Positions 26,088 to 35,610 of a DNA stretch of 64,000 nucleotides are shown one piece after another. The position numbers were made by a program, and so were the translations under genes. Origin of the DNA: Riemerella anatipestifer (GTDB lineage Bacteria; Bacteroidota; Bacteroidia; Flavobacteriales; Weeksellaceae); assembly GCF_051132245.1 (NCBI RefSeq), contig NZ_CP081184.1; one strand, 5' to 3'. Within the stretch, counting starts at the first letter, position 1; each line of letters opens with the position of its first letter. Below the pieces are notes generated by a model. It was given only the letters and a program-made list of their open reading frames with translations. It ran no database searches and was not told where the DNA came from.

Positions 26088-29000
26088 CTAGCTTCTCTTT
26101 AGGGCTTCTTGTATCCCCTTTAGTCCGTCCGAAAATTCGGCAAGTAATGCGGCTATTTGTGCCATTCTATCGTTCTCGCCTAGTCCTTTGAGACGCTTGT
26201 TCTTCTGGAAGGTTTCTTGTATGTGGTGCCATCTGGTGGCTTCGGTTTCGGTAAGGAGTGCCATCATTTCTTTTAGTTTGAGTAGGTTGGCTTCTGCACC
26301 TGTGGTGAGGGTTTGGGATTCGTTTTGGTAGTGTTCTAGGATAAGTGCTTGTACTTCTGCCTCGGAGAGTATGGGCTGTACTTTGGTAACTAGCTTGCTC
26401 ATATCTCGGTAGGAGCCTTGTAGCTTAAATGCGGGCTCGGTTCTGTAATCGTCTTCCATAGCGGCGGATTGTATGTACTGGGAATTGACTTGCAGTACGA
26501 CCTGCCTTATTTGTATGATTTTCTCCAAAACGGCTCTAAAGTCGGCTATCTCTTGTGCCGTAAAGTTGCCTTCTATGGTAGGGTCTGGCGTTTGGTTTTG
26601 TATGGCGTCGTAGAGCTGATATAGGTTTTGGTAGGCGGGTTGGGTAAGCCTAGTGAGGTAAGGGTTGGAGGTAATGGCGTTTTCGATAAGGCTAAGCTCA
26701 AATAGGTCTGTTTGTGTGCCTGATATGTCGCCTAGGTTATAGATGTCGGCACGGTTGGCCAGCATATCTGGGATTTGGAACTTGTCGCCGCTTTCCGTAT
26801 ATGGGTTGCCCGCCATTACTAGGCAGAACCTTTTGGAGCGCATATCGTAGGTTTTAGAAACGCCGTTGTAGATGCCTTCTATTTTTCGTTGCCCATCTGC
26901 TAAGGAAATGAATTTTTGTAAAAACTCGGGGTTGCAGTGTTGTATGTCGTCTAGGTACAGCATTACATTATCTGCCATTTCTAGGGCGAGGTTGAGCTTT
27001 TCTAGCTCCTGTCTAGCTCCTGCATTTTTGGCTTCGCTAGGGTCGGTAGAGGTAATTTCGTGCCCGATGGCAGGTCCGTTGATTTTCATAAACACCAAGC
27101 CCATTCGGTCTGCCACATACTCCATCAGCGTAGTTTTACCGTAGCCAGGAGGCGATACCAAGAGCAGCATTCCCATTCGGTCGGTTCTCTTTTGTTCTCC
27201 CAAAGCTCCTATTTGCTTTGCGAGGTTGGCTCCAATGAGGTTGAAGTACACCTCGTTAATGAGTTTGTTTCTCACGAAAGAGCTAAGCACCGAGGTCTTG
27301 AACGAGTCGAGCTTTAGTTCCTTTTTCTTCTTCTCTATCCATTCTTTCTTTAGCTTTTGTAGCTCGGTGAACTTAGGAATGATGTTCTGGTGGTAGTAGC
27401 TTAGCCTTTGGCTGAAGTCGTGGAAGTCTAAAATATATTCTGTATTGGTATCCAAAGACTTTAGCCCTGCAATGGCTTCGGTGTGGCTTACTGTGGAGAT
27501 TTGGTTCTCGTGGAAGTTTTGGGTAATGATAAATGCAGAAGCCTCCTCTATAACCATTTGGCTTGCTTCTGTATGCTCGGCAAGGAGGAAGGTTTTTAGG
27601 GCATTTTCTACAATATCATAACACGCCGAAGGGTAGTGGTGCAAATCTTCTATTTGCTGACTGAACACGAGGTCTTTGCCTTTTTCTTTTAATCCGTTAA
27701 CGAATTTCTGATAGAGTTCTGCTGCTTCTTTTGAGATTACAAAGCGGTTTCGGTCCTCTTTCTTGAGGTACACGGCAGCGTTATAGGCAGAGGTGTGGCA
27801 GAAGCCTTGGAAGTCTTTATTAAAATCGTCTATCTTTTGGGATAGGGTAGCGTTGAGGTAGGTAAACTGCTTAGAGTTGGCAAAGGTGTCCGATAGTAGG
27901 TGTACTGCCGAAAACTGTTTTTCGTAAAATACCTTTTCTTCTGGGGCAAGGAAGAACCAAAATAGCTGTGCCAAAGCCCTTTCGGACGGGTTGTATCTAA
28001 GAAGTCCTAAGTGGTTGTTGAGCTGTTGTAGTTTGGTGAGAATCAGTAGGGCATCTTCATCGTGTACGCCTTTTACTAAGCCCTCTCCAAAGTGATTTTT
28101 GAGGAATTGCTCTATGAGCAGTCGGTTGGTTTCTTCGGACGAAATAGCGGGGTTTTTAAGGAAGATTTCCCAAGCGAGGTATTCCATCTTTTTCACCTCT
28201 GTATTTTCCGAAACAAATTCTTGATGCCATACTTCCTGATAATCTTGTATCGCCTCAAAAGCCAATGGTTCGTAGAAGCTCGTCCCAGTAATATGGTAGT
28301 AGTAGGCTCCTTGTCTTAGCACTAAGCTAAGGTCTAGCTTCTGCTGATTAACCGCAAACTGGTACTTGCCGAAGTTAATGGTATTCTCGCCATCGGTATA
28401 GATTTCCTTTTTGTCTTTAAGTTTGCGTATAGCGTCTTGTTGAGCTGTTTTTAGGTGGGTTTGTAGTTCTTCAGCTTTGTTGCTATCCTGTAAATCGTTA
28501 AGCTGGGCAACGAGCTCTCTTAGCTTGTCCACCATCAAATCGGAAGCGAAATAGCCGTTGATTTCCACTTCTGTATCAAAAGATTCGGCTTTGCTGATGA
28601 TGCTCTTCAAGATTCGCTCTCCAGACTGAAATAGGTTTTGTGTTCTTCTGTTTTGAGCCTCGGTAAGCTGCACCATTTTGTTCTGAAAATGGGTGTAAAC
28701 TTCCTCTCTCTTATCGGCGATTATCTGTATAAACTCCTCAAAGTCTATGAATTTGGTCTCTAGTTCTTCTAGTTGTATGGAGAGTTTGGTAAGGTATTCG
28801 TCTGCCTTATCTGGGGTGTTTGCCAACTCTAGGAAGTTGATGGAGGCTTGGTCAAACAATGTAATTTGAGCTTTGAAATCTGCAGAAAGCTCTGTTCCAG
28901 AAATTTCTCTTTTCTTGTTGTTAAGTTCTATTCTCTGCTGGTTGATTTGCGAGAAAATCACCGAAATTTTTTCTATGATTTGGGTAGAATGGGAGGCATC

Positions 29001-35011: not shown

Positions 35012-35610
35012 TTATGACTTATTTCGGTACTAATATAAAAAAAATAAGGCAAATAAAAGGGCTTTCTCAACAAGCATTTGCAGATATGCTGAATTTAACA
35101 CGAGGAATTATAAGTTCTTACGAAGATGGTAGAGCTGAACCTAAGGTGGAAACTCTCCTTAGAATTGCACAGTTTTTAGATATGAAAACAGATGATTTAA
35201 TATCTAAGCCTCTTACGGTTAATCAATTAGCTAATTTTGAGGAAGTAGAAGATTTAATCTATAAGAAAGAAAATATTACTGAAAGTAAAAAAGAATTTTA
35301 CCCAGTTAAAGTGGAGCAATCTTTATTCACAAATGTGGAGTATTCTTTGGAGGTAACTTTCGAAATAGGGGGTAATCATTTTTATCAGAATAGAGATATT
35401 TTGCTTCTTAAAAAAAATTACCAAAAGAGTGAAAATAAAGGACAATACCTTATTTTCACTCCAGAAAAGTCTTATATAAGCTGTACTCCTAATGTTAATG
35501 AAGAATGCTTTTTAATCGTAGGTTGTATTTATTCCAATCGAAATACCAATCCTATAAATAGCATTATGGATAGGCTAGATTATATAGAAAAAACACTAAA
35601 AATATCTTAG
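34993..35610 (+). CDS. XRE-family helix-turn-helix transcriptional regulator with a ~130-aa C-terminal domain (probable start ATG 35014)
   Basis: [48 protein letters not shown] is a classic Cro/C1-type HTH; divergent from the psp-like operon. Confidence 0.6.

Follow-up and report, generated by a model that had tools for sequence, protein, structure and literature searches.

A conserved YqiJ–flotillin–ATPase locus with PspA and a divergent XRE-type regulator in Riemerella anatipestifer: a candidate inner-membrane maintenance module

Gene content of the locus

We analysed a 64,000-nt stretch of the Riemerella anatipestifer genome (assembly GCF_051132245.1, contig NZ_CP081184.1; hereafter the window, meaning the whole of this stretch), with particular attention to a locus at 26088–35610 in which genes for a PspA protein, a flotillin and a 1603-aa ATPase lie in one row opposite a divergently transcribed regulator. 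Five minus-strand genes run from 34928 down to 26088 with gaps of 76, 6, 51 and 95 bp, and one plus-strand gene faces them; the list of open reading frames (ORFs) is identical to the layout reported in the first-pass annotation, a model's reading of the letters alone, which had described five tightly packed co-oriented genes with 6–95 bp gaps facing a divergent XRE gene. Database comparison found the ATPase to be 99 % and the flotillin 100 % identical to existing R. anatipestifer entries. For two of the genes the ORF list begins at a TTG codon, and in each an in-frame ATG is the likely true start as judged from the sequence: 34898 for the CesT-like gene, in agreement with the beginning of its Pfam match, and 35014 for the regulator gene. 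With these starts, the divergent intergenic region measures 115 bp. The features of the locus are as follows.

35014..35610, plus strand: XRE/Cro-CI-type regulator, 198 aa from the likely ATG at 35014 (ORF-list start, TTG 34993)
34899..35013, no strand assigned: divergent control region, 115 bp, with two inverted 20-nt elements
34497..34898, minus strand: CesT/Tir-like chaperone-fold protein, 133 aa from the likely ATG at 34898 (ORF listed as 34497–34928, TTG start)
33719..34420, minus strand: PspA/IM30 (bacterial ESCRT-III), 233 aa, PF04012
33059..33712, minus strand: YqiJ/YuaF-type NfeD membrane protein, 217 aa, from an orthologue profile compared with Escherichia coli YqiJ
30995..33007, minus strand: YqiK-type flotillin, 670 aa, from homology to E. 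coli YqiK
30960..30984, minus strand: terminator/attenuator-like hairpin in the 95-bp flotillin–ATPase spacer
26088..30899, minus strand: ATPase, 1603 aa, database name 'DNA repair ATPase', from Pfam, AlphaFold and fold searches
29520..30827, minus strand: DUF3686 region, the beta-propeller of the ATPase, aa 25–460, PF12458
27960–28442, minus strand: beta/alpha mid-domain of the ATPase, aa ~820–980, inside the helical arm
26700..27182, minus strand: AAA+ core of the ATPase, with Walker A, Walker B, sensor-1 and candidate arginine finger

Conservation of the gene neighbourhood

The ATPase belongs to a large family, with 3055 database proteins at E ≤ 1e-10 and 820 clusters at 50 % identity; two signature peptides recovered at least 585 relatives from contigs representing one genome per species. 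In order to define its gene neighbourhood we took the 80 closest loci and applied our own ORF calling and iterated profiles; 61 of these loci, in which the sequence extended 6.5 kb or more beyond the start of the ATPase gene on its upstream side, were informative. In 58 of the 61, from at least six phyla, genes for YqiJ and flotillin stood immediately upstream of the ATPase gene on the same strand, whilst PspA was found upstream in 29. As such, the constant partners of the ATPase are flotillin and YqiJ rather than PspA, and the invariant core is a YqiJ–flotillin–ATPase triad whose order is kept in Bacteroidota, Planctomycetota, Verrucomicrobiota, Kiritimatiellota, Desulfobacterota and Firmicutes. 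The full set, with a divergent XRE gene followed by CesT, PspA, YqiJ, flotillin and ATPase genes, was present at 28 of the 61 loci, all of them in Bacteroidota; regulator, CesT-like protein and PspA form an extension specific to this phylum. The triad alone made up 27 loci (Planctomycetota, Verrucomicrobiota, Kiritimatiellota, Desulfobacterota, Clostridia and some Bacteroidota), whilst two Chryseobacterium loci had the XRE gene directly facing YqiJ and one locus had PspA without the CesT-like gene. Wherever a regulator orthologue existed it occupied the equivalent divergent position (30/30 loci). Co-occurrence of the ATPase with PspA and flotillin, which had been put forward as a check on the unit, is therefore constant for flotillin and YqiJ and partial for PspA.

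All-against-all clustering of the neighbouring ORFs yielded only shadow ORFs beyond the six genes, which led us to reject the idea of an additional component, for instance a phospholipase D as described in some Proteobacteria. A second arrangement was found on pQBR103, a megaplasmid of Pseudomonas fluorescens SBW25 (locus L083, 85452–104341), where genes for PspA, a rhomboid protein, DUF2491, DUF350, DUF1190 and glutathionylspermidine synthase run directly into a YqiJ-sized gene, an SPFH gene and a gene for a 1748-aa 'DNA repair ATPase'. Here a yjfJ-type polyamine/PspA operon is fused to the triad, providing a second, independent link between the ATPase and PspA.

Domain architecture of the ATPase

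Pfam assigned DUF3686 to aa 25–460 of the ATPase (E=4e-182) and DUF7902 to aa 581–665, and both AAA and AAA_5 exceeded their cut-offs over aa 1245–1368; no helix–turn–helix (HTH) or sigma-54 interaction domain was matched. AlphaFold models, generated in two halves from 79-sequence alignments of full-length database homologues, reached a mean confidence (pLDDT) of 88.1 for aa 1–700 and 87.9 for aa 701–1603. They place, in order, an N-terminal helix, a beta-propeller (aa ~46–395), helical bundles and coiled coil (aa ~406–830), a beta/alpha domain (aa ~820–980), further helices, the AAA+ core (aa ~1240–1400) and a helical C-terminus, with about 800 residues of the protein being helical. The propeller gave low TM-scores in Foldseek, its matches being generic propellers (IFT-A, the clathrin N-terminal domain, Vps18 and the PALB2 WD40 domain). 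The AAA+ core has the MoxR-type fold, including a beta-hairpin between alpha3 and beta4 (aa ~1339–1352), and the nearest structures in the fold search were the MoxR chaperones CbbQ and NorQ; MCM and RuvB were also listed among the Foldseek matches. The initial assignment of a MoxR/AAA_5-type module is thus borne out by profile and fold alike.

Walker A (GYGKT, with K1255 and T1256), sensor-1 (N1365) and a candidate arginine finger (R1383) are invariant in the family, which, together with the confident AAA+ model, speaks for competence as an ATPase. Walker B is likewise invariant, at D1317–D1318, and reads Asp-Asp instead of the canonical Asp-Glu (hhhhDE). The mid-domain carries a second set of invariant positions (D829, G844, F848, N851, H869, G872, T873, E898, K943, G944, D949 and R974) together with a K-G-V-H-D-x-D-A motif, and could be a binding or catalytic site; it had no Pfam match, and a profile of aa 820–1010 had no match among PDB sequences.

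Flotillin, YqiJ, PspA and the CesT-like protein

Neither the 670-aa nor the 217-aa protein matched a Pfam or NCBIfam model, even at E=10, or a PDB entry as a single sequence, and their identification came from the E. coli proteins YqiK and YqiJ, used as references, and from orthologue profiles. The 670-aa protein, named 'flotillin family protein' by NCBI, shares 33 % identity with E. coli YqiK across 442 residues (E=2e-53), and the profile of its orthologues matches YqiK at E=2.2e-70, aligning only positions 11–448 of 682. Its layout comprises an N-terminal transmembrane segment, the SPFH domain, a coiled coil and a family-specific C-terminal region of ~230 aa. This last region, in the ATPase-linked flotillins, is not alignable to E. 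coli YqiK, which itself has no such ATPase partner. Pfam Band_7 gave no score for the flotillin of the window, whilst one 87 %-identical homologue carries PF01145. The 217-aa protein has three hydrophobic segments and, C-terminal to these, a beta-rich domain. As a single sequence it matched E. coli YqiJ weakly, though collinearly (BLASTP, E=0.007), whilst a profile of 60 orthologues matched YqiJ almost end to end (E=2.9e-12); among orthologues from other phyla, three exceeded the cut-off for PF21001 (YqiJ_N) and one showed a weak NfeD match.

PspA was recognized by PF04012 (PspA_IM30) at E=1.2e-37, with 130.1 bits against a cut-off of 33.9 and coverage of profile positions 1–217 of 220, and by TIGR02977 of NCBIfam at E=1.9e-15, which is under the equivalog cut-off. 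The first protein of the operon covers the full CesT_Tir_1 profile (PF22550, E=4.9e-57) and does not match the Pfam YbjN profile. Its gene lies directly upstream of that for PspA, 76 bp away in the window, and the same adjacency recurs at 28 loci. As regards the YjfJ subfamily named by Ravi et al. (2024), BLASTP aligned PspA with E. coli YjfJ only weakly (E=0.002), in the N-terminal part, and found no similarity between the CesT-like protein and YjfI.

The first-pass calls on these proteins fared well overall. Flotillin/YqiK is upheld by homology that spans the SPFH domain and coiled coil of the E. coli protein, NfeD/YqiJ by the YqiJ profile match and by the PF21001 and NfeD matches among orthologues, and PspA/IM30 by a full-length match above a curated cut-off. 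The 'YbjN-like' label correctly pointed to a small protein and has to be replaced at the family level by CesT/Tir-like; YbjN and CesT share one Pfam clan, and the label was hence close.

Regulator and control region

The regulator carries an HTH_3 domain (Pfam, E=3e-13). A Peptidase_S24 match was obtained for 14 of 31 regulator orthologues (best E=4e-9), and in most orthologues the S24 catalytic positions are altered, Ser to Glu and Lys to Arg. Pfam found no recognizable S24 domain in the C-terminal part of the window protein, which reads as a shortened, degenerate remnant of a LexA/CI-like S24 domain. Because the dyad is replaced and the domain degenerate, RecA-type self-cleavage is unlikely, and the regulator is probably CI/LexA-like in architecture without being self-cleaving. 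One orthologue, in Flavobacterium sp. 28YEA47A (locus L023, 4993–5727), keeps 'NSM' and the Lys at the S24 catalytic positions and may still cleave itself.

The control region had been called a symmetric promoter region, and the symmetry is exact: the 20-nt element TTTGCATAAAATATTAGCAA occurs as a perfect inverted repeat at 34910–34929 (minus strand) and 34992–35011 (plus strand), two matches where 0.07 would be expected. Two further sequences fit the pattern TAnnTTTG, the published consensus for the −7 promoter box of Bacteroidota: TAGTTTTG at 34988–34995 (plus strand), a candidate promoter element for the regulator gene, and TATATTTG at 34933–34926 (minus strand), a candidate for the operon. 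One arm of TTTGCATAAAATATTAGCAA begins within each of them. A related 15-nt dyad, GCTAA-N5-TT[T/A]GC, was found in 22 of 30 orthologous intergenic regions (24 matches compared with 0.135 in shuffled sequences); the arms in the window are one base off this form, and Hymenobacter has a co-varying version, GCTCA-N5-TGAGC. We predict that the recurring dyad is the operator for the divergent regulator.

Seven marine Flavobacteriaceae loci (L009, L010, L013, L014, L019, L045 and L054) have longer control regions of 220–340 nt in which a very hydrophobic mini-ORF of 13–23 codons (e.g. MTALIHALLTIIINLI) is followed by a conserved TTTTGTAATATT. This mini-ORF may specify a leader peptide or a small membrane peptide. 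Both elements were read by eye and, by the same inspection, are absent from the R. anatipestifer window.

The flotillin–ATPase spacer

Within the 95 bp that separate the flotillin and ATPase genes lies a hairpin with a 9-bp stem containing six G-C pairs, followed by CTTTTAT; its minimum free energy is −16.9 kcal/mol (z=−3.1). Hairpins at z ≤ −3.5 relative to shuffled sequences were present in 19 of 40 orthologous spacers, with stems of 9–17 bp and unrelated sequences. Since structure is thus conserved without conservation of sequence, the hairpin could act as an intercistronic attenuator or stabilizer that sets a high flotillin-to-ATPase ratio. Inspection of the spacer by eye revealed no TAnnTTTG box, and a search of the whole window against Rfam returned nothing at gathering thresholds. 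The suggestion of a single inducible unit consequently stands in part: a divergent regulator with operator repeats fits an inducible operon, whilst the idea of a single transcript is qualified by the terminator-like hairpin ahead of the ATPase gene.

Flanking sequence

To the left, the locus is flanked by an Rhs toxin array, an IS1 element and an ankyrin gene; to the right, by ligA, a TonB-dependent receptor and a POT transporter. The Rhs locus (74–23171) contains two full-length Rhs proteins, at 74–4720 (with TcdB_toxin_midN and a Tox-MPTase2 tip) and 7160–10834, and a core-end segment of ~300 nt that occurs seven times (3323, 9419, 13111, 15082, 16882, 19449 and 21780), giving the array the look of a string of orphan toxin/immunity cassettes. 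Between the array and the ATPase gene are an IS1-family transposase (23973–24695) and a 151-aa ankyrin-repeat protein (25244–25699); in Aquimarina, too, ankyrin genes occur just past the regulator gene, at loci L014 and L054. The ATPase stop codon is followed immediately by a G+C-rich stretch of ~390 nt (25700–26087) that holds no convincing gene and has no Rfam match. Related copies at ~7258–7282 and 45142–45410, including a 67-nt inverted match of 88 % between 25728–25794 and 45344–45410, indicate that it is probably a dispersed repeat element. Elsewhere in the window, at 61895–62283, a 21-nt unit is repeated in tandem in at least 12 copies with 61–87 % identity to a reference copy.

On the other side, ligA (NAD-dependent DNA ligase, 35607–37616) runs towards the regulator gene from the opposite side, the two overlapping by 4 bp. 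A link between ligA and the module was rejected, as none of the 80 related loci shows this adjacency.

Interpretation

We consider it probable, with moderate confidence, that the locus represents, in R. anatipestifer, a conserved and chromosomally encoded module that maintains the inner membrane and responds to stress, and in which a flotillin/NfeD scaffold is remodelled by the ATPase. Membrane remodelling had been proposed at the outset, and the membrane-maintenance part of that proposal agrees with the domain identities, the synteny, the second join to PspA on pQBR103, the repeats of the control region, the invariant ATPase residues and the C-terminal region special to the ATPase-linked flotillins, whilst its claim to novelty and its leaning towards an accessory or defence role do not hold. 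The comparative study of Ravi et al. (2024; mSystems 9:e00847-23, PMC11237479) proposes ATP-dependent membrane dynamics for such operons, and cooperation of an SPFH protein with PspA is known from experiments in Bacillus subtilis (PMC8581546). Since what we have in hand is a parts list, synteny and a predicted operator, every functional step of the mechanism is a proposal. With a repressor on a pair of operators, each overlapping the −7 box and start site of one promoter, the unit would stay off until a signal arrives. Flotillin and YqiJ would build a cage or microdomain of SPFH type at the inner membrane, on its cytoplasmic side, whilst the CesT-like protein would hold PspA in an assembly-incompetent state until it polymerizes on damaged membrane beside them. 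The ATPase, presumably made at a lower level owing to the hairpin ahead of its gene, would oligomerize via its AAA+ module and use its propeller and long helical arm to take hold of the flotillin/NfeD scaffold, and of PspA polymers where these are present, and to remodel them by assembly, disassembly or recycling. A more specific version, which we advance tentatively and think rather less likely than not to be correct in full, would make the ATPase a nucleotide-driven remodeller of SPFH cages, and additionally of PspA/ESCRT-III polymers in Bacteroidota and some proteobacterial replicons. It would dock via the C-terminal region of the flotillin, be switched on by a dedicated CI-like repressor, and serve as a bacterial, non-homologous counterpart of Vps4 or of FtsH in HflK/C.

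Several observations weigh against a membrane-maintenance module built around this ATPase. The substrate of the ATPase is deduced from gene order alone, and at 3 of the 61 informative loci none of the module genes, not even an adjacent flotillin, lies upstream of it. An Asp in place of the catalytic Glu of Walker B may render hydrolysis slow, and the protein a nucleotide switch rather than a motor. Moreover, the AAA+ module is MoxR/dynein-like and not Vps4-like, and has neither a MIT domain nor a VWA partner. The flotillin–ATPase hairpin could mean that the two genes are largely expressed separately, and the C-terminal domain of the regulator in the window is degenerate. Finally, searches of the literature for DUF3686, PF12458 and 'DNA repair ATPase' together with flotillin returned no experimental work on the ATPase.

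An alternative that we judge unlikely is quality control or assembly of membrane proteins, in which the flotillin/NfeD cage would corral clients, the MoxR-like ATPase would be their chaperone and PspA would only buffer the membrane. The closeness of the AAA+ core to CbbQ and NorQ points this way, as do the CesT-like chaperone and the beta-propeller, a typical protein-binding platform, and analogies exist in FtsH inside HflK/C cages and in MoxR proteins that mature partner complexes. Ravi et al. (2024) favour a chaperone-like role in assembling membrane-linked complexes. Set against this, no conserved client or VWA adaptor gene lies nearby and the ATPase has no protease domain, whilst PspA, which accompanies the ATPase in two independent architectures, points towards membrane stress. 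That the system is instead an anti-phage or abortive-infection system, which would respond to envelope damage by killing or arresting the cell, appears quite improbable to us. It would suit the neighbouring Rhs toxin island, IS1 element and ankyrin gene, the resemblance of the regulator to capH, RmrA and control-protein HTH models, and the frequent presence of large ATPases in defence systems. Nevertheless, PADLOC-DB 2.0 returned no defence-system model beyond generic HTH matches (with P-loop matches of 16 and 12 bits), tblastn found no match among 50,697 phage records and only 13 among 72,556 plasmid records, mostly large non-mobilizable megaplasmids or chromids, and no effector domain (nuclease, pore-former or NADase) was detected. 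In addition, an identical or near-identical flotillin is present on more than 250 R. anatipestifer contigs; the module genes are core in this species and syntenic across Bacteroidota, with order and orientation kept between families while the flanks vary. The same results speak against the accessory function and the defence option that had been suggested for the locus earlier.

Two further readings concern the ATPase gene itself. It might be merely adjacent and functionally independent, forming its own transcription unit past a terminator, as the T-rich tail of the spacer hairpin and the similar hairpins of orthologous spacers would allow. We hold this to be very improbable: all but 3 of the 61 loci, in six or more phyla, keep YqiJ and flotillin next to the ATPase gene on one strand even though the spacer sequence is not conserved, no promoter box was visible in the spacer of the window, and conserved intercistronic hairpins would usually be expected to balance the products of one operon against each other. 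The last reading, that the large protein is a DNA-repair ATPase whose vicinity to flotillin and ligA reflects a DNA-related role, is extremely improbable in our estimation. It draws on the Pfam text for DUF3686 ('ATPase involved in DNA repair') and the NCBI name, on the position of ligA 3′ of the regulator gene, on MCM and RuvB among the fold matches and on the LexA/CI-like character of the regulator; the gene context, in which ligA is found next to the module at 0 of 80 loci, largely refutes it, and we consider the database name 'DNA repair ATPase' unsupported.

How bacteria make flotillin cages and PspA/ESCRT-III polymers assemble and come apart in a controlled way is an open question, for which this operon class offers a concrete candidate ATPase. 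Its candidacy rests on the tie to flotillin and NfeD in at least six phyla and on the joining of PspA in two architectures. The R. anatipestifer locus is compact, belongs to a culturable duck pathogen and has an apparently simple repressor/operator switch, making the idea directly testable.

Comparison with known systems

The regulator resembles phage CI and LexA repressors in combining HTH_3 with Peptidase_S24 in orthologues and in having dyad operators in a divergent promoter region, and differs from them in that the Ser-Lys dyad is mostly Glu/Arg in the orthologues and in that the window protein scores no S24. From the classical Psp system (pspFABCDE), neither PspF, PspB nor PspC is among the conserved neighbours of the module. 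The core fold of the ATPase is shared with the MoxR family (CbbQ, NorQ and RavA, and the dynein/midasin AAA_5 group); MoxR proteins, however, are ~300 aa in length and work with a VWA partner, whereas here the module ends a 1603-aa protein, has an Asp-Asp Walker B and has no VWA gene nearby. ESCRT-III/Vps4 and HflK/C–FtsH each combine a scaffold at the membrane, an ESCRT-III polymer in the one and an SPFH cage in the other, with a ring ATPase, and offer an analogy for how the module may work. The likeness is one of function only; the ATPase of the module lies outside the classical clade of Vps4 and FtsH and has no MIT or protease domain. A 2025 review (PMC7619361) holds that a Vps4-like ATPase appears to be absent in bacteria and describes the roles of Band-7 partners as undetermined.

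Closer relatives are found among flotillin operons. The E. coli yqiJ–yqiK locus has the homologous flotillin (33 % identity), a YqiJ that matches by profile and the same order of YqiJ followed by flotillin; it lacks the ATPase, PspA, CesT-like and XRE genes, and the C-terminal region of the window flotillin is different and longer. The pspA-ydjGHI operon of B. subtilis shares the pairing of PspA with an SPFH gene, and its SPFH protein YdjI is reported, on experimental evidence, to link PspA to the membrane (PMC8581546). YdjI belongs to another SPFH subfamily, its partners are YdjG and YdjH, and the operon is without NfeD, CesT-like and AAA+ ATPase genes. A literature search found nothing specific on flotillin or PspA in Riemerella. 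On a wider scale, Popp et al. (2022; PMC9239133) recorded PspA beside Band-7 proteins in Bacteroidota and noted that PspA operons more widely feature NfeD partners as well as HTH regulators.

The nearest counterpart is the operon class described by Ravi et al. (2024), in which a CesT/Tir–PspA pair is combined with YqiJ/YuaF, a Band-7/flotillin protein and a beta-propeller/coiled-coil/AAA+ protein; the study also notes abbreviated flotillin–YqiJ–ATPase operons and lists, in Table S3, the neighbourhood in Dokdonia donghaensis (ANH61663.1), where the cHTH+protease gene is divergent. The window agrees with this class in all six genes and in their order, orientation and phylum: CesT/Tir stands next to PspA, YqiJ and flotillin follow, the propeller/coiled-coil AAA+ protein comes last, and we found no architectural difference. 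As to the cHTH+protease regulator, the HTH is present, whilst the S24-like part is degenerate in the window and recognizable in 14 of 31 orthologues. A giant ATPase within a PspA unit, which the first-pass annotation had thought new, had hence already been catalogued by comparative genomics (PMC11237479). That earlier work is purely computational, and its text and Table S3 make no mention of core-triad statistics, an operator, an intercistronic hairpin or an Asp-Asp Walker B. Thus, to an architecture published in 2024 the present analysis adds a refinement, consisting of the statistics of the triad, the predicted operator, the hairpin of the spacer and the Asp-Asp form of Walker B.

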